A stretch of 64,000 nt of DNA from an uncultured Victivallales bacterium (GTDB lineage Bacteria; Verrucomicrobiota; Lentisphaeria; Victivallales; GWF2-45-14), in the NCBI GenBank assembly GCA_964651145.1, contig CAZYVR010000002.1, forward strand, positions 63 through 64,062. Reading direction: 5' to 3'. Shown piece after piece: positions 27,977 to 62,318 of this stretch. The translations under genes and the position numbers were made by a program. The notes beneath the pieces were generated by a model that saw only the letters and a list, made by a program, of their open reading frames with translations, was not told the origin of the DNA and did no database searches. Position 1 is the stretch's first letter. Every line of letters begins with the position of its first letter.

Positions 27977-29197
27977 TTAATCGCCAGTTCTGGAATATTT
28001 TTTATCCAAAATTACTTTCTGTTTTTTCAATTGCGCCTGAAGTTTGCTTATGTCCAAGTCTTTGAAGCTTCCGATTTTTGTTGAGCTCAGCATTGCGGCG
28101 GCGGTTCCGGCCGCTTCGCCAGTCACAGCGCATGTGGGGATTACGCGGGTTATGTCCCAGCCTGTTCTGCCGGATGACATGCAGCGTCCCGCGGTTATCA
28201 GATTGTCGGTTTTTACAGCGGCAAGCGATCTAAGTGGAATATAAAAGATTGGGCCATTATTCCTCCAGTCCCCGGTCATCCCCACAGTGTCGTCAAAATA
28301 GCGCTTGTCGTCGCTTTCCTCAAGCTCAACGCTTCCCTGCAGGCGCCGCGTCATTCGGAACGCCGGGATTGCCGTCATAAAGAGGGGGGATATTGCGGAG
28401 TTTTCTTTTTTTAGATCTTTAAGGCGTTTCTTTATAAGCTTTCTGGTTTCCAGCGTGAATTCGGTCACATCATCCGCGTAATGTCCGGCAAAGCCTCTTT
28501 CGCCATTGGGGGCTTTTGTCGCAAATTTGTCATATTTTCTGGAAAACGTATTCAGCACAATCTTGGAGCCGTCAAAATGATAAAACCAACTGGAGCGCGT
28601 GTTGGCGTCTGAAGCCACTGTGTTTTCCCCGGCGCGCCAGCAGACATCCGCGTCGCCGGACGCGTCTACAACCGAGCCGCATTGCATTGCAGTTCTGCCG
28701 TCTTTGTTCTCCACTATAACGGCTTCTATGCTGTTTCCATTTTTGACAACTTCGCAGAAGCGGGTGTCATAATAAAGCTTGATCTTATTTTTTTCGATAA
28801 GGCTTTCCAGCTCGAGCATAAAAGTCATAGGGTTGAAATCTACGCGGTATCTGTCCTGCTTGCGCAGGTTTGCGTTTCCGCCATTTTTCCAGCCTTCAGG
28901 TATTTCGTCATAGTTGTCGCTGATCGAAAGTTTAAGCAGTTCTTCGCCGAGGCCTTTGATTACCTGATTGCCCATGCCATCGCAAAGCGGCAGATATATG
29001 ATCACATTTCCGAGAGTTGCGAGTCCGCCAAGGGCGTTTTCTTTTTCTATCAGGCATACGCTTGCCGAGTTGCGCGCCGCCGCCACTGCCGCCGTCACGC
29101 CGGCGATGCCGCCGCCAACCACCACAACGTCGTATTTGCCTGCTACTGGAATTCGCGTTGCCGGCTCAGTGATGTATTTTTTCATTCTCGATGCCAT
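27977..29197 (-). CDS. FAD-dependent oxidoreductase (PF12831-like)
   Basis: DVVVVGGGIAGVTAAVAAAR; LGGLAT.G; VVDASGDAD; YIPLRSL...NLITAGRCMS; TRV...C..TGEAAGTAA. Confidence 0.85.
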   Translation of the reverse strand: MASRMKKYITEPATRIPVAGKYDVVVVGGGIAGVTAAVAAARNSASVCLIEKENALGGLATLGNVIIYLPLCDGMGNQVIKGLGEELLKLSISDNYDEIPEGWKNGGNANLRKQDRYRVDFNPMTFMLELESLIEKNKIKLYYDTRFCEVVKNGNSIEAVIVENKDGRTAMQCGSVVDASGDADVCWRAGENTVASDANTRSSWFYHFDGSKIVLNTFSRKYDKFATKAPNGERGFAGHYADDVTEFTLETRKLIKKRLKDLKKENSAISPLFMTAIPAFRMTRRLQGSVELEESDDKRYFDDTVGMTGDWRNNGPIFYIPLRSLAAVKTDNLITAGRCMSSGRTGWDITRVIPTCAVTGEAAGTAAAMLSSTKIGSFKDLDISKLQAQLKKQKVILDKKYSRTGD

Positions 29198-29921
29198 GAT
29201 CAAATTTCCTTTCAATGAGTGAAGCTTTAGGCTCGTCTTTAAATTTTATTTTTATTGCGTTTACTTTGTATTTTCCTTGCACAACCCAGGCTCCTATAAA
29301 TTCTTCCAGGCTTTTGCGACAGTTTTCGAGGACTATTTCCATATGGGACTTGTCCACTGCTTTTTTGCTTAGCTCCGAGGATAAGTCGCGTTCAAGGTCT
29401 TTGAGCATTTTTTCTTCCCCGAACACAAGCCAGCCATTGTTCGTTTTTCTTTCCAGGCGTGAGGTATCTATCGCCGGCGGCCCAGCCTGCAGACGCGGCG
29501 CTTGAATATAGAGTATGTCGTCTTTCAGCAAGAGACTCCATTCTCCTTTCATGTCCACAAAGTATGTGTAGGTGACCGGGCAACGGATAATGACGGACGC
29601 GCTTCCTTCTATAGGATCTTTTTTTAATGGAAACTTGTAGGATCGTTTGACGGTGTTCTTGACCATTTCATTAGTGGTTCTGGTTGCCAGCTCAAGGTTT
29701 GCCACGCGAGTGATTTTTTCTGTGTAGTCGTGAAATTCTTTTGTCAAGGTCTCGTGAATCTGGATTGCGCTTTGATTGGAGATAAATTTGTAAACCGCAA
29801 AGGTTGTTGCCAGAATGGCGACCATTGTTATAGTCAGGCATGAGAACAAAGCAAAGAAAATGCCTCCTATTGCTCCCTTGTTTCTGAATATATTTTGCTT
29901 GTCGCTTGTGTTGCTGTCCAT
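29166..29921 (-). CDS. Membrane-anchored hypothetical protein, DUF4230-like
   Basis: N-terminal TM helix; ANLELAT...P..Y.YFVD....W......LYI..P..Q...P.IDT; ENCRKSLEEF. Confidence 0.55.
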   Translation of the reverse strand: MDSNTSDKQNIFRNKGAIGGIFFALFSCLTITMVAILATTFAVYKFISNQSAIQIHETLTKEFHDYTEKITRVANLELATRTTNEMVKNTVKRSYKFPLKKDPIEGSASVIIRCPVTYTYFVDMKGEWSLLLKDDILYIQAPRLQAGPPAIDTSRLERKTNNGWLVFGEEKMLKDLERDLSSELSKKAVDKSHMEIVLENCRKSLEEFIGAWVVQGKYKVNAIKIKFKDEPKASLIERKFDHGIENEKIHH

Positions 29922-30067
29922 AAAAATGCTTAAAAACCTGTTTGTTTGCGAACTATAATCTAATCGGAATGAACGCCGCCGTCAACAGACTGGAAACGAA
30001 AAGACAACAAATAATAGACTTCATGTAATGTAATGGCGCCACTAAAAGTCTTGAAAAATAAAAAAGC

Positions 30068-30313
30068 TGTAATTCCTCAGTGAAAGAGTTTTTTAAAAGC
30101 AAAAACATGCCTCCGGGGGCTTCCCCGGACGCTTGCCGGGGCGGAATACCGGCTAGCCGCGCGGCAATGAGCGCTCGCCAAGGGCGAAAGTCATAGCTGT
30201 TTAATGTCGCCGCGACAGCGTGCACGGCGCATTGGGAGCCTGAAGCTTATTTCAAAGCGAAGCGGGAAATAAGCTAAGCTTGACAGTTGCGTCAGCTTCA
30301 CTGAGGGATTACA
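30068..30313. mobile_element. 246 bp MITE-like non-autonomous element
   Basis: Left end TGTAATTCCTCAGTGAA (30068-84); right end TTCACTGAGGGATTACA (30297-313, reverse complement TGTAATCCCTCAGTGAA, 16/17 match); flanked by direct repeat AAAAGC (30062-67 and 30314-19); no transposase inside. Confidence 0.8.
30113..30251 (+). repeat. Structured motif, copy A (inside the MITE)
   Basis: Ordered hairpins and motifs shared with 61438-61556: CCGG hairpin + ACGC, stem with GGCGGAAT loop, GGC(G)AAAG, AGCTGTT..GCGACAGC, GGCGC, AGCCTG..GCTT.TT. Confidence 0.7.
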
Positions 30314-30352
30314 AAAAGCTAAAGAAAGGCCCCAATAAGATTGATGTGTCTC

Positions 30353-30381
30353 TTGACAAGAGCAGGGCAAGGCTTTTATAT
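30353..30381 (+). promoter_or_regulatory. Putative sigma70 promoter
   Basis: TTGACA-N17-TTATAT upstream of the small ORF at 30419. Confidence 0.45.
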
Positions 30382-30418
30382 ATGAGCAATAAAAAGAAAA
30401 AATAGAAGAGTCTTTTCA

Positions 30419-30544
30419 ATGAGAAGTCTTTTGATGGCGTCAATCTTTGTTTTCTGTGTTCAAGCCGTTTCTTTTGTCGGAGGCTGTAAAGCAGTTCGGG
30501 AATGGGCGCAAAAACTTTTTAAAGACAAGGGGAATGTGAGATGA
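30419..30544 (+). CDS. Small putative lipoprotein/secreted peptide (41 aa), not in the ORF track
   Basis: MRSLLMASIFVFCVQAVSFVGGCKAVREWAQKLFKDKGNVR; hydrophobic stretch then VGGC; stop overlaps the next start (ATGA). Confidence 0.5.
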   Translation: MRSLLMASIFVFCVQAVSFVGGCKAVREWAQKLFKDKGNVR

Positions 30545-32025
30545 GCGATTTGGATAAACAGTTTTCAGGAACCGAAGCCAGTTTTTTGCGCGCTGGCGTG
30601 GGCAAATGCGATATAACCACCACTGAAAAAGGGGTGGCTGTGAATGACCCTTTGTACGCCAAAGCTCTGGTTTTGGACGATGGGAAAATCAAGGTTGCCA
30701 TCATTGTCATGGACGCTGTGGCTATAGGCGGAATATGCGATATAAAGGACGACTTTCTGCCTAAGCTTCGCAGCCGCATTGAAAAAGAATTAAAGATCCC
30801 GGGCCGAAACATCCTGGTCAACGCGTCTCATACTCACACCGCTGAACCGATGCTTTGCGAAGACGCGGAGCAGCTTGAAAGAACATTTGACGCCGTCAGC
30901 CAGGCTCTGAGAAATATGGTCGAAGTAAAGGTCGGCGCGGGCTCCGGCTATGAAGACCGAATTATGATAAACCGCACTCTCAGGCTGAAAAACGGCCAGT
31001 CATGGACGATTCGGCATAGCAATCCTTGCCCTCCCGATGAAGAGGTCGAAAGTCTTGGGCCGGTCGATCCGGAAATAGGCTTGCTTCGATTTGACCGGAT
31101 GGATGGCAGTCCTCTGGCGGTGGTTTACAATTTTGCCTGTCATCCATTGATAGGTGTTCCCGGAGGCGGAGTAACCGCCAATTATCCTGGCTTTGCGTCA
31201 AAAGTTATTGAAGACAATCTGGGCAATGACGCCATGGCTCTGTTTCTGCAGGGAGCTGGCGGTGACATAACCGAGGTTCTTTACAAAGACGTCAATCGCC
31301 CAAGAGACTCTGAGCCAATCGGGCGAATGCTGGGCTTGAGCGCCTTGAAGGCCTTGAAGGATATACAGGTTAAAGATGCAGCGCTGAGTGTTATTTCCGA
31401 AACGATAGAGCTTCCGAGAAGAACCGATATTCCTGAGCGCATTGAAGCGTTGCGGGTCGAACAGGATGAATTGCTCGAGTCATTGAGGTTTGTCAGCCTG
31501 AACTTAAAGGCCTTTCTCCCTTTGTATATAAAACACGCCCTTGACCCTGGCTTCCCTTTGGATTATTCCTACAGGTACTTCCAGGCGGAAAAGATTGGCG
31601 ACGATGGGCTTGTTGATATGGATTCCGTGAACAGGGAAAACATCAAGAAATATCTAAACAACATTCGAGCCATGGAAAAACTGGCCAGGATTCAGGACAA
31701 AATAGCAACCTTGAAAAGGCATCAGGCGATTAATGACGAATCCGGCAAATCCACAATATTGGCAGAGGTTCAGGGCATTAAAATAGGAGACTGCGTGCTG
31801 ATAACTTCTCCTAATGAGGCGCTTGTCGAAGTCGGTTTGAATCTTAAAAAGTCATCTCCATATGAGCACACCTTTATGGCTGCTTTTTCAAATGGCTATA
31901 TGCACTACGGCCCTCCCGCCAGCTACTACGACAGGGGCGGCTACGAAGTCACAGAGTGTTTCCTTGCTCCCGAATGGCACAAAAAATATGAGGACAAAGC
32001 CAACGACATAATCCAAAGGCTGTGA
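30541..32025 (+). CDS. Neutral/alkaline ceramidase N-terminal-domain family hydrolase (function unknown)
   Basis: LRAGVGKCDIT..DPLYAKALVLDDG; NASHTHT; YNFACHP; ANYPG; FLQGAGGD; NGYMHY.P...YYD.GGYEV. Confidence 0.7.
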   Translation: MSDLDKQFSGTEASFLRAGVGKCDITTTEKGVAVNDPLYAKALVLDDGKIKVAIIVMDAVAIGGICDIKDDFLPKLRSRIEKELKIPGRNILVNASHTHTAEPMLCEDAEQLERTFDAVSQALRNMVEVKVGAGSGYEDRIMINRTLRLKNGQSWTIRHSNPCPPDEEVESLGPVDPEIGLLRFDRMDGSPLAVVYNFACHPLIGVPGGGVTANYPGFASKVIEDNLGNDAMALFLQGAGGDITEVLYKDVNRPRDSEPIGRMLGLSALKALKDIQVKDAALSVISETIELPRRTDIPERIEALRVEQDELLESLRFVSLNLKAFLPLYIKHALDPGFPLDYSYRYFQAEKIGDDGLVDMDSVNRENIKKYLNNIRAMEKLARIQDKIATLKRHQAINDESGKSTILAEVQGIKIGDCVLITSPNEALVEVGLNLKKSSPYEHTFMAAFSNGYMHYGPPASYYDRGGYEVTECFLAPEWHKKYEDKANDIIQRL

Positions 32026-39561: not shown

Positions 39562-39645
39562 CCTCGACTATGATTGTTTTTTCCGGTTCTTGCGCCGGAG
39601 TGTTCTTTTAAATAATTTCAAGACGTGTGTTCTTGAATTTGTATG

Positions 39646-39786
39646 AATCTTCAGGGCAAGGTGATCCTATGCTATTTGGCAAAGGAAATTCCTGACCGGC
39701 GGTAAAAGTCCGCGAGTCCTCATAAATATGAGGACTGATATGGTGAAACTCCATAACCGACAGTATAGTCTGGATGAAAGAAGATT
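39646..39786 (+). ncRNA. FMN riboswitch (RFN element)
   Basis: AATCTTCAGGGCAAGGTGA..AATTCCTGACCGGCGGTA..AGTCCGCGAG..TGATATGGTGAAACTCCATAACCGACAGTATAGTCTGGATGAAAGAAGATT upstream of ribBA. Confidence 0.95.
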
Positions 39787-39819
39787 GAGCCGTTTTTTGC
39801 GGCTATGTTTTTTTTTGCG

Positions 39820-39849
39820 GCCCCGGAGATTATCCGGGGCTTTTTTTTT
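39820..39849 (+). terminator. Riboswitch-associated intrinsic terminator
   Basis: gccccgga-gatta-tccggggc followed by T9; a second hairpin agccg/cggct plus T run at 39788-39816. Confidence 0.85.
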
Positions 39850-39870
39850 GTAAAAATATGGAGAGATGAC

Positions 39871-41067
39871 ATGGCTGTGAATTTTGATCCGATTGAAGAT
39901 GTTATTGACGCTGTAAAACGCGGCGAACAGGTGGTGATCACTGATGATGAAAACAGGGAAAACGAAGGCGATCTGATAGTTGCCGCGTCAAAGGCCACCC
40001 CTGAGACTGTTAACTTCATGGCGACGCACGGACGGGGACTGATTTGTGTCCCAATAACGGAGAAGCGGGGCAAAAAATTGAATTTGGGCGATATGGCTTC
40101 GCTTGACGACCCTTTTAAGACTGCTTTTACTGAAAGCATTGACGCCAAAGAAGGCGTAAGCACTGGCATTTCAGCGTTTGATCGCTCGAAGACTATATCA
40201 GCCATAATTGATCCTGATTCGACAAGAAGCGACTTTGTTTCTCCGGGCCATTTGTTTCCGCTGATAGCAAGGCCGGGCGGCGTCCTGCAAAGAGCCGGGC
40301 ATACCGAGGCCGCAGTTGATTTGGCTCGCTTGGGCGGGCTTTATCCGGCTGGCGTGATTTGCGAAATAATGAACGACGATGGCACAATGGCGCGTGTGCC
40401 GGAGCTGGACGAATTCCGGAAAAAACACGGTCTGAAATGGGGATGCATTGCTGACCTTATCGCTTACAGAAGAAAAAATGAACGACTTGTCAAGCTCGAA
40501 CAATCCACCCGCCTGCCAACCAGGCATGGAGAATTCAAGCTATGCCTTTACAAAACTATGATTGACGACAAAGAGCACCTTGCTCTTGTTTGCGGCGAAG
40601 TGGAGGGAAAGGAAAATGTTCTGGTAAGAGTTCATAGCGAATGCCTTACGGGCGACGTGTTTTCTTCCGCGCGCTGCGATTGCGGCGATCAGCTGGAAAA
40701 AGCCATGAGCATGGTTCAGGCGGAAGGATGCGGCGTTATTGTTTATATGCGTCAGGAGGGCAGGGGGATCGGCCTTGGAAATAAAATTCACGCATACCGG
40801 CTTCAGGACGAGGGCCTTGACACAGTGGAGGCAAATGAGCGCCTTGGATTTTCAGCCGATCTCAGAGAGTACGGCATCGGCGCGCAGATACTTCTGGACC
40901 TCGGAGTCAAAAGCATAAGACTGTTGACTAATAATCCCAAAAAAGTAGTTGGCATAGACGGTTATGGATTGAAAATAAACGAAAGAACGCCTATTGTCAT
41001 TCCACCCGTGGAGCATAACAAGAAATATTTGTCCACGAAGAAAGAAAAATTAGGGCATATACTTTAA
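39871..41067 (+). CDS. ribBA: Bifunctional DHBP synthase / GTP cyclohydrolase II
   Basis: [31 protein letters not shown]; [30 protein letters not shown]. Confidence 0.97.
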
Positions 41068-61279: not shown

Positions 61280-61437
61280 TTTTCCCCACAATTTTTTAGT
61301 TTATTACAATACTATCTTAGAAATTAATAGAGCGCCAATTCGCGAAAAATTCAAAAAAAGTTTAAAATTCAGTTAAAAGTAGAAAGTGGGAAAGTAGTAA
61401 AGATGGAGCCGCCAAAAGTCCCGGGAGCTGGCGCTCC

Positions 61438-61556
61438 AACAAGCCGCAGGCTTTTAACGCGCCATTTGCGCTGTCGCGCAATCTCCTATATGCCAACAGC
61501 TTTAGGCTTTGCCCACCAGCGATTCCGCCGCTGAATGGCGTCCGGACTTAGTCCGG
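61438..61556 (-). repeat. Structured motif, copy B (no TIRs)
   Basis: Minus strand ccggactaagtccggacgc cattcagc ggcggaatc gctggtg ggcaaagcc taaagctgtt...gcgcgacagc gcaaatggcgc gttaaaagcctgcggcttgtt; same motif order as 30113-30251. Confidence 0.7.
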
Positions 61557-61559
61557 TTT

Positions 61560-62318
61560 TTATTCCGGCTTTGTCGGGGTGACTTTCAGCACGGAGTCAT
61601 CATAGGACGCGACAATGCTCTGGCCCGGTTGCACAATAAGGAACTCATTTTTGTCCCATTTGCCGTCCATAAATCTTTGCAGTAATGAAAGGTCGCCTTT
61701 TATTTTTTCAAATTCCCATCCGTTTGTCCTGGCCTCGTTTCGGCTGAAGTCTTCAAAGCGGCCGTCAGAGTCCATGCCCATTTCTATAAAGGCGAAACGG
61801 CTGTAATTGTGAGCGGGATCGCAAAGAGTTTCGCAAAGATATTGGGCATTGTCCTCGCCGTATTCACGAACAAGCTCTTCGTAGCTGAGATCCATTCCTG
61901 ACTTGCGCTGAATAGATTGCCGCTTAAGCTCATCCGTTGTTTCAGAGCGCTCAATCCAGCCGGCAGTGTGAAAATATACGCCGGGATTTGCATTGAAATA
62001 ATCGGAATATTTTTGGCGGCTTCCCATAAAAACTGTTATGCAATCATGCGCTTTGGGAATGACCAGCGGCACGGTTCTCGCTTTCAGGCCAACCGCGGCG
62101 TTATTGCACAACGCATAGCCTAGAAGGATATAATTATAGCCCAACGCCGGATCAGAGGACGCATCAATGGCTTCTTGAAGCCGGGCGGCCATGTCTTTTG
62201 TTTCAATGTCATGCAAGCCTCTGGAAAGGAATTCCACATCGATTTTGTTTATTGAACGGGCCGCGACATGGCATATCTCGCGAAAAAAAACATTGCAGGC
62301 TATTGTTTTTAAGTTCAT
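61560..62318 (-). CDS. DUF1638 family protein
   Basis: IAC.VF.RE, GLH, ILLGYALCNNA..GL, PKAHDCITVFMGS...Y; WI; G.L..L.....G.W. Confidence 0.85.
   Translation of the reverse strand: MNLKTIACNVFFREICHVAARSINKIDVEFLSRGLHDIETKDMAARLQEAIDASSDPALGYNYILLGYALCNNAAVGLKARTVPLVIPKAHDCITVFMGSRQKYSDYFNANPGVYFHTAGWIERSETTDELKRQSIQRKSGMDLSYEELVREYGEDNAQYLCETLCDPAHNYSRFAFIEMGMDSDGRFEDFSRNEARTNGWEFEKIKGDLSLLQRFMDGKWDKNEFLIVQPGQSIVASYDDSVLKVTPTKPE

Follow-up and report, generated by a model that had tools for sequence, protein, structure and literature searches.

Several small non-coding repeats of other bacteria resemble the element discussed here, which occupies positions 30069-30312 of a 64-kb stretch of DNA from an uncultured salt-lake bacterium (contig CAZYVR010000002.1; this whole stretch is called the window, and all positions given without a contig name are its coordinates). 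We consider it very likely that this segment is a copy of a new multicopy family of non-autonomous miniature inverted-repeat transposable elements (MITEs), for which we use the name F1. MITEs are shorter than about 600 bp and carry no transposase gene. The present element is 244 bp long, lacks such a gene, and has conserved terminal inverted repeats (TIRs), duplications of characteristic length and copies at many unrelated loci.

One close comparison is with bcr1 of the Bacillus cereus group, likewise a small non-coding intergenic repeat with a fixed short direct repeat, whose location varies between genomes and whose multi-stem fold is kept by compensatory changes (PMC3184786); F1 behaves in the same way. 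The two differ in that bcr1, a repeat of Firmicutes about 155 bp in length, makes 5-bp duplications and is known to be transcribed, whereas F1 has duplications of 8-9 bp, is 244 bp long, comes from a Planctomycetes-Verrucomicrobia-Chlamydiae (PVC)-group bacterium and shares no sequence similarity with bcr1. The hairpin interior of F1 appears to be maintained as a structure, as in bcr1. The Correia/NEMIS repeats of Neisseria and the enterobacterial ERIC/IRU repeats are also multicopy intergenic MITEs whose TIRs pair into a long stem and which may carry terminator-like or promoter-like modules. Correia elements are distinguished by a TA duplication, a length of 100-155 bp and 26-bp TIRs (see also PMC3184786), compared with the 8-9-bp duplications, the far GC-richer multi-hairpin interior and the unrelated sequence of F1. 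Finally, Streptococcus pneumoniae has SPRITE and BOX repeats, which are modular, lie between genes and include hairpins resembling Rho-independent terminators (PMC3184786). On the minus strand F1 carries a single such hairpin followed by a T-run, and its sister family F2 (see below) has two in tandem, but the organism, sequence and ends are different, and the orientation of F1 and F2 copies is unlike a simple terminator role.

Copies, ends and target duplications of F1

Logan contigs of seven salt-lake metagenome runs (X1-X7) that contain the stretch were aligned to the window and word depth was counted. In run X1, depth was 120-540 over 30064-30345 versus about 6 on both flanks, and across salt-lake metagenomes the element stands at 20-90 times the depth of its flanks. 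Run X1 contained 67 contig pieces of the element, mostly 90-95% alike, with sequence that became unrelated beyond about 30075 on one side and about 30310-30312 on the other. The copies in contigs L002 and L005 gave a similar depth pattern. For the family, 67-86 contig pieces were counted in one run. A 24-nt core word recovered 17 Joint Genome Institute (JGI) metagenome contigs (L001-L017) in which the repeat lies at different intergenic sites, and all 20 copies or fragments are intergenic. If all of these copies come from the population at about sixfold coverage, the depth implies a host genome with several dozen of them. The same core word gave no match in the GTDB species genomes, and the 64-kb window contains no second F1 copy or F1 TIR. 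The original prediction had proposed a non-autonomous transposable element and had staked this on other copies existing somewhere; it is borne out by copies that occupy many unrelated places between genes and are each flanked by a direct repeat of their own.

Alignment and BLAST identified full-length copies beside that of the window in L005, L012 and L008, in L014 with a diverged right end, and in L013, where the copy is split by an insert. Among themselves the other full-length copies show 93-96% identity, whereas the window copy agrees with them at 89-92%. Its junctions are present in runs X3 and X5. The insertion had been called recent and its flanking duplication is indeed perfect, yet the window copy is the most diverged full-length member and occurs in every sample that covers the junction, which speaks against a recent event. 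A short subfamily of about 155-180 bp (L002, L009, L010 and L016, with L006, L004 and L007 also placed in it) lacks element positions 159-224, which lie between two GCGCCAGC repeats. As members of this subfamily have target duplications of their own, it has itself spread. The left part is absent from L006, L004, L007, L017 and L011, of which L006, L004 and L007 keep the right end, and L003 and L014 are truncated at the right end.

At the window locus, the inverted repeats TGTAATTCCTCAGTGAA (30068-30084) and TTCACTGAGGGATTACA (30297-30313) are complementary at 16 of 17 positions, with AAAAGC directly outside both arms (30062-30067 and 30314-30319), just as originally described. Allowing up to three mismatches, three occurrences of the TIR word were counted in the window where 0.12 would be expected, and none of the shuffles gave as many. 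The idea that these matches are a chance inverted repeat and no element at all has in its favour the single copy in the 64-kb window, but it is dismissed by this count and by the dozens of copies elsewhere. The same boundaries can also be read as an 8-bp repeat, AAAAAGCT, at 30061-30068 and 30313-30320, enclosing a 244-bp G...C element at 30069-30312. Since a T precedes and an A follows the element, the window alone cannot tell the 6-bp from the 8-bp reading; the latter is favoured because other copies of the family support 8 bp. Homology between copies begins at the G and not at the preceding T. The left-end consensus is G[C/T]AA[C/T]CCCTCAGTGAA(AGTGG) and the right ends of 11 copies read TTCACTGAGGGATT[A/G]C; family left and right ends can be written G[C/T]AA[C/T]CCCTCAGTGAAAGTGG and CAGCTTCACTGAGGGATT[A/G]C. 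The TIR core (CCCTCAGTGAA / TTCACTGAGGG) is kept at both ends across copies, while the outermost 5 nt vary.

Eight copies are informative about the duplication. Exact 8-bp flanking repeats are found in four (the window, AAAAAGCT; L002, AGTTTTTT; L005, TTTTTAAG; L013, CATATATT) and an exact 9-bp repeat in one (L016, AATTCTATT); in the remaining three the repeat is degraded (L010, 8/9; L009, 7/9; L012, 6/8). When left and right flanks of different copies were paired as a control, the mean agreement was 2.4 of 8 and the longest exact match was 5. The 8-9-bp repeats of L005, L013 and L016 are not readable as 6 bp. Thus the 246-bp unit with TGT...ACA ends and a 6-bp duplication that had been proposed gives way to one of 244 bp, with each end one base further in, and to a duplication of 8-9 bp in the informative copies.

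Two copies have unusual architectures. In the F1 copy at L005 3914-3960 the right end occurs twice, at a spacing of 25 nt (CCAGCTTCACTGAGGGATTAC in both); its 8-bp duplication agrees with the outer one, and an identical junction is found in run X1. At L013 150-2162 (minus strand), an F1 copy is split exactly, neither losing nor duplicating a base, by a 1769-bp insert that is unique. The insert has a 450-aa open reading frame (ORF) that looks secreted and matches no Pfam family, and it has no TIRs, repeats or other copy. Because both F1 TIRs and the perfect 8-bp duplication (CATATATT) are kept, the composite resembles a mobile insertion cassette (MIC) such as MIC231 of Bacillus cereus, having both ends, an intact duplication and a 1769-bp insert with a 450-aa non-transposase ORF. 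The difference is that L013 is the only such copy, and its insert may have arrived secondarily instead of forming a cassette that moves as a unit.

A hairpin core common to three repeat families

The GC-rich, hairpin-dense interior that had been reported was confirmed: GC content is 0.62-0.66 per 100 nt, rising to a peak of 0.68 over 120 nt, while the window as a whole has 0.44, and the folding z-scores relative to shuffled sequence are -5.3 (plus strand) and -6.0 (minus strand). There is likewise no transposase ORF inside, as stated originally; the ORFs within the element are short, overlapping and on the wrong (antisense) strand only. A coding role for the interior was considered (29-codon ORF, ATG at 30107) and rejected, the frame not being conserved in F2 and being shifted in L009 and L003. 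The features of the locus, from left to right, are as follows.

30034-30067, minus strand: pre-existing isolated 34-nt terminal fragment of an F2 repeat, GGCGCCACTAAAAGTCTTGAAAAATAAAAAAGC, not part of the element
30061-30068, no strand: left target-site duplication, 8 bp, AAAAAGCT, an exact match with the right flank
30069-30084, plus strand: left terminal inverted repeat, GTAATTCCTCAGTGAA, by inverted-repeat match; TIR-like sites occur in all loci
30085-30111, plus strand: A/T-rich subterminal linker, AGAGTTTTTTAAAAGCAAAAACATGCC, conserved in all copies that keep the left end
30112-30129, plus strand: predicted hairpin A, TCCGGGG-GCTT-CCCCGGA, by folding, with compensated pairs across families
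30135-30153, plus strand: predicted hairpin B, GCCGG-GGCGGAATA-CCGGC, with the conserved loop GCGGAAT
30159-30174, plus strand: predicted hairpin C, GCGC-GGCAATGA-GCGC, in F1 and F3 and not in F2 (21-nt indel)
30175-30187, plus strand: predicted hairpin D, TCGCC-AAG-GGCGA, followed by a conserved GAAAG, with a CG-to-UA compensated change
30188-30243, plus strand: central GC-rich segment E, with conserved CGACAGCG and ATGGCGC, of ambiguous pairing
30244-30275, plus strand: predicted hairpin F, AGCTTATTTC / GAAATAAGCT, complementary at 10/10 positions, with the invariant loop GCGAAGC at 30257-30263
30276-30298, plus strand: predicted hairpin G, AAGCTTGAC-AGTTGC-GTCAGCTT, from the minimum-free-energy fold, containing the second GCG(C/T)CAGC repeat
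30297-30312, plus strand: right terminal inverted repeat, TTCACTGAGGGATTAC, by inverted-repeat match
30313-30320, no strand: right target-site duplication, 8 bp, AAAAAGCT, an exact match with the left flank

Two sister families share this interior. F2 is a repeat of about 245 bp with ends GA[C/T]GGAGCCGCCAAAAGTCC that was found in the flanks of several F1 copies; read on the opposite strand, 163 nt of it are collinearly homologous to the F1 interior and 56-63% identical. F3 (L005 3965-4215 and L002 2560-2775) is 68-73% identical to F1. It is intermediate between F1 and F2, retaining hairpin C and having other ends (...GGCTCTGCAAAA / TTTTGCAGCAGC). The terminal repeats differ between the families (GYAAYCCCTCAGTGAA in F1, GAYGGAGCCGCCAAAAGTCC in F2 and ...CTGCAAAA in F3), and so does the flanking repeat, which is about 6-7 bp in the two informative F2 copies (TCACTA in L017, TGATTT(A/C) in L004) versus 8-9 bp in F1.

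The conserved structure was assessed with RNAalifold on 10 sequences from F1, F2 and F3, giving 36 predicted pairs. Across the three families 97.5% of cells are paired. Compensated double changes affect 10 of the 36 pairs and 28 cells, compared with 5.6 +/- 1.1 pairs and 10.7 +/- 2.6 cells in shuffles, none of 500 of which reached the observed values; when the partners were slid as a control, 32-49% of cells were paired and at most five such pairs appeared. A covariance model built from the three-family alignment recovered 34 copies in the window and L001-L017, and no match in three contigs from other Lentisphaerae-like genomes. The diverged copy at L005:5389-5560 adds more compensated pairs. 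Hairpin A has two pairs swapped for compensated pairs in F2 (CCGGAC/GTCCGG) and others in this diverged copy (CCGAAT/ATTCGG). The stem of hairpin B takes the forms CCAGCG/CGCTGG, CCAGTG/CACTGG, CCAACG/CGTTGG and, in L013, GCCGA/TCGGC around an unchanged loop, hairpin D occurs as TCGCT/AGCGA, TGGGC/GCCTA and CGGC/GCCG, and hairpin F has compensated double changes across families in three of nine pairs. The loop motifs GCGGAAT, GAAAG and GCGAAGC are constant throughout. Segment E, for its part, holds the first GCG(C/A)CAGC repeat, which is the deletion point of the short subfamily. The hairpin interior is older than the F1 family, and the alignments point to a structure maintained at the single-strand level. 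This maintenance may reflect a need in transposition, a role as RNA at the level of the host, or correction of quasi-palindromes without function.

It is possible, if distinctly less than an even chance, that the element is chiefly a structured RNA or single-stranded DNA (ssDNA) module set on transposon ends, a reading that adds to the MITE reading. The selected unit would then tentatively be the 165-185-nt core, for example a structure in a 3' untranslated region or an insulator, or an RNA or ssDNA cofactor of transposition. We hold it similarly doubtful, though worth stating, that the core (hairpins A, B, D and F with GCGGAAT, GAAAG and GCGAAGC) is a selected single-stranded module that at least two to three MITE backbones have carried or taken up by capture. 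The compensated pairs and constant loops across F1, F2 and F3 favour such a module, as does the occurrence of one core between different TIRs with different duplication lengths. Two hints of strandedness point the same way: in stems that both strands are predicted to form, every wobble-type departure reads as G.U on the core plus strand (G.U versus A.C counts of 7 vs 0 across families in alignment A4, 8 vs 0 in F2 and 2 vs 0 in F1), and F2 cores lie near the 3' side of a co-oriented gene, 3-170 nt downstream of it, in seven of nine cases. However, no RNA run contains the sequence, covariation is lacking inside F1 and several copies have hairpin-breaking changes. The consensus fold of F1 alone is slightly better on the minus strand (-54.8 vs -47.7), and the orientation biases of F1 and F2 relative to the core are opposite: F1 cores point their 5' side at the start of a divergently transcribed gene (13 of 16 cases), most often leaving 90-150 nt between the element end and the start codon. 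Moreover, few independent events underlie the compensated differences between families. Quasi-palindromes 'corrected' by template switching can mimic compensation without function, and this could yield the apparent compensation seen here. Taken together, the hints from strand and orientation, which come in small numbers, form no single model.

A terminator role was considered separately. The linker at 30085-30111 provides, on the minus strand, a T-run after hairpin A, and a terminator-like site is predicted on that strand from hairpin A (30129-30112) and this T-rich tail; by reading, F2 has two terminator-like modules of hairpin and T-run in tandem. This candidate was rejected, as the orientations of F1 and F2 are not consistent with one single-strand terminator model. 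Rfam 15 contained no family for the element, either at the gathering score over the whole window or at an E-value threshold for the locus and for the F1 plus F2 locus in L017; the best sub-threshold match at the locus, Pseudomon-Rho, reached 29 bits where the gathering score is 45. A hammerhead or other small ribozyme core was sought by eye and in Rfam and is absent. The loop heptamer GCGAAGC, invariant in all family members, is known as an unusually stable DNA mini-hairpin, a property of possible relevance to an ssDNA role of the structure.

The main use of these repeats lies in the covarying hairpin core that is common to families with different ends and duplication lengths. Should the core be functional, it would provide a natural experiment on the purpose of a MITE interior (a need in transposition, an mRNA 3'-end or insulator, or a small RNA), and it would mean that structured cargo can switch transposition machinery. 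Transposon ends would then be interchangeable vehicles for structured cargo of benefit to the element or the host.

F2 sequences also bear on the history of individual loci. The window has an F2 copy at 61401-61598 with ends GATGGAGCCGCCAAAAGTCC ... GTGACTTTCAGCACGGAGTCATC, in which hairpin F is deleted internally and the right TIR is diverged; covariance-model search of the window returned only this F2 copy, at 61427-61557. The right TIR overlaps the last codons and the stop of the ORF at 61560-62318 (minus strand), so the insertion may have remodelled the C-terminus of the encoded protein. At the F1 locus, the F2 fragment left of the MITE matches L001:647-684 over 38 nt (87%) and an F2 end over 24 nt (96%); the MITE is inserted at the inner edge of the fragment, and no remaining F2 sequence lies beyond it. 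In the flank paralogue in L001 (AAAAAAGCTGACGG) the T found before the element belongs to the F2 fragment. A loose contig end hints at another F1 copy behind the motif GGCGCCACTAAAAGTCTTGAAAAATAAAAAAGC. Nested repeats are also seen at L017 1354-1775 and L008 4658-5125, where an F1 copy has an F2 copy within its right TIR; in L017 the end of F1 continues on the far side of F2, with TCACTA duplicated.

Transposition and parentage

We favour the reading in which 30069-30312 is a MITE mobilised in trans. A transposase encoded elsewhere, which we infer to be of the DDE type, would recognise the terminal inverted repeats of about 16-21 bp; the 244-bp element would have been inserted into A/T-rich intergenic DNA by a staggered cut of 8 and sometimes 9 bases, and repair of this cut would have left the flanking direct repeat AAAAAGCT. 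The gene-free interior, a GC-rich chain of hairpins, is inherited from an ancestor that F1 has in common with at least two sister families, F2 and F3. Because these hairpins are kept by compensating substitutions, they are probably needed in single-stranded form, whether by the element or by the host.

The search for other copies of the TIR and for an autonomous partner, which the original prediction had called for, yielded the former and not the latter. No TIR pair enclosing a gene was found in the window and the 17 related contigs, and all-against-all BLASTP of 242 ORFs from the window and these loci revealed no repeated protein. A degenerate 21-nt TIR gave six matches in the GTDB species genomes, where about 17 are expected by chance, all in unrelated coding DNA; TIR and core gave none in the IMG/VR viral contigs. 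Three runs contained no contig with the F1 left end followed by inward divergence, as a candidate autonomous insertion sequence would show. The 1769-bp insert of L013 was considered as a transposase carrier and rejected, its 450-aa ORF having no Pfam match and the insert no TIRs.

The following points weigh against the favoured reading. First, the window, the 17 contigs, GTDB and IMG/VR yielded no autonomous element whose ends match, for a host whose genome is incomplete. Second, the 5-nt tip of the left end is variable (GCAAC, GCACC, GCGCC, GTAAT), more so than expected for a tip bound by a transposase. Third, covariation within F1 alone is nil (0 of 45 pairs, covariation term +1.49), as expected from the low divergence of F1. 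Fourth, some F1 copies carry hairpin-breaking changes and 12-nt indels. Fifth, an empty-site allele, in which ...AATAAAAAAGCT would be joined straight to AAAGAAAGG, had been named as a check but was not found in the metagenome contigs of the seven runs, and the neighbourhoods of relatives are not syntenic with the window. The closest relatives of the 494-aa protein encoded to the right of the element are 75-77% identical, the nearest named ones being Lentisphaerae metagenome-assembled genomes at 74-75%, and there is no record elsewhere of the exact protein. With relatives this distant and their neighbourhoods different, there is no orthologous empty site to examine, and mobility is inferred from the copies and their duplications.

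The first prediction had looked to IS481, IS30, IS21 or IS3 for the parent, and it is improbable that the element is a 246-bp IS481-like (or IS3, IS21 or IS30) derivative with TGT...ACA ends and a 6-bp duplication. The window and L002 do fit TGTAAT...ATTACA, with AAAAGC in the former and GTTTTT in the latter, but these are the only copies with TGT/ACA ends and any base may adjoin the ends elsewhere: the T is missing from 9 of 11 left ends and the A from 6 of 13 right ends. The T of the window copy is moreover accounted for by the flanking F2 fragment, as L001 indicates. With TGT/ACA confined to two copies, homology starting from the G and repeats of 8-9 bp in L005, L013 and L016, the lead loses its basis. 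The earlier interpretation was therefore right in kind and wrong on the end positions, the duplication length and the parent families.

Rather less credible still is spread as a REP/REPIN-type element through a RAYT/Y1 enzyme, or as a retroelement resembling a short interspersed element (SINE). The hairpin-rich, ssDNA-like architecture would suit such an origin, as would the five copies that lack the left part (L006, L004, L007, L017 and L011), three of which keep the right end, and the GCGAAGC loop, known as a hyper-stable DNA mini-hairpin. Against this, Y1/HUH enzymes make neither fixed 8-9-bp duplications nor terminal inverted repeats, the truncated copies have no flanking duplication and include truncations at the right end as well (L003, L014), and the element measures 244 bp rather than the 20-40 nt of the palindromes. 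The surroundings of the copies showed no RAYT or reverse transcriptase gene, and the 242 ORFs no RAYT-like repeated protein.

For the MITE reading, the IS66 family provides another lead on parentage. Its ends are inverted repeats of 20-30 bp that start GTAAGCG, with 8-bp duplications (PMC11946415, PMC12888890). F1 shares the 8-bp target duplication, and GTAA begins the left end in the window and most right ends. It differs in that its ends read GTAAT(T/C)CC or GCAACCCC, without GCG at positions 5-7; GTAAT or GCAAC is followed by CCCTCAGTGAA, most left ends have GCAAC, and some repeats are of 9 bp. No IS66-type transposase with F1 ends was found among the sequences searched, which cover part of the host genome. 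Judged from the sequences, IS66 parentage seems to fit only in part, and we treat it as a lead rather than an assignment.

As a MITE, F1 is routine; it explains assembly breaks at intergenic repeats. It is also a marker for its uncultured host, probably a member of the Lentisphaerota or of some other PVC-group lineage, in whose intergenic DNA nested mobile repeats are crowded together. The family could serve as a strain marker in a time series of the lake.

Genomic setting and neighbouring features

The element lies between a 251-aa ORF on the minus strand (29166-29921), which matches no Pfam family, and two genes on the plus strand, a small ORF (30419-30544) and a 494-aa ceramidase-like gene (30541-32025). 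The small flanking ORFs have no Pfam match. A promoter is predicted on the minus strand at 29985-29957 (TTGACG-17-TAGATT), and a TTGACA-18-TATATA-like site was read by eye at 30353-30382. Both promoter-like sites fall between the element and the flanking genes, so that the element probably lies upstream of both promoters rather than within them and probably left both intact.

The ORF at 30419-30544 (plus strand) has 41 codons and an N-terminus like that of a signal peptide or lipoprotein (MRSLLMASIFVFCVQAVSFVGGC...). The stop codon of this ORF and the start codon of the ceramidase-like gene overlap (ATGA), an arrangement that suggests translational coupling. Elsewhere in the window, a flavin mononucleotide (FMN) riboswitch (RF00050; 106.5 bits, E = 9e-24) lies at 39643-39789 on the plus strand, directly upstream of the ORF at 39805-41067; it is the only Rfam match in the window at the gathering score.

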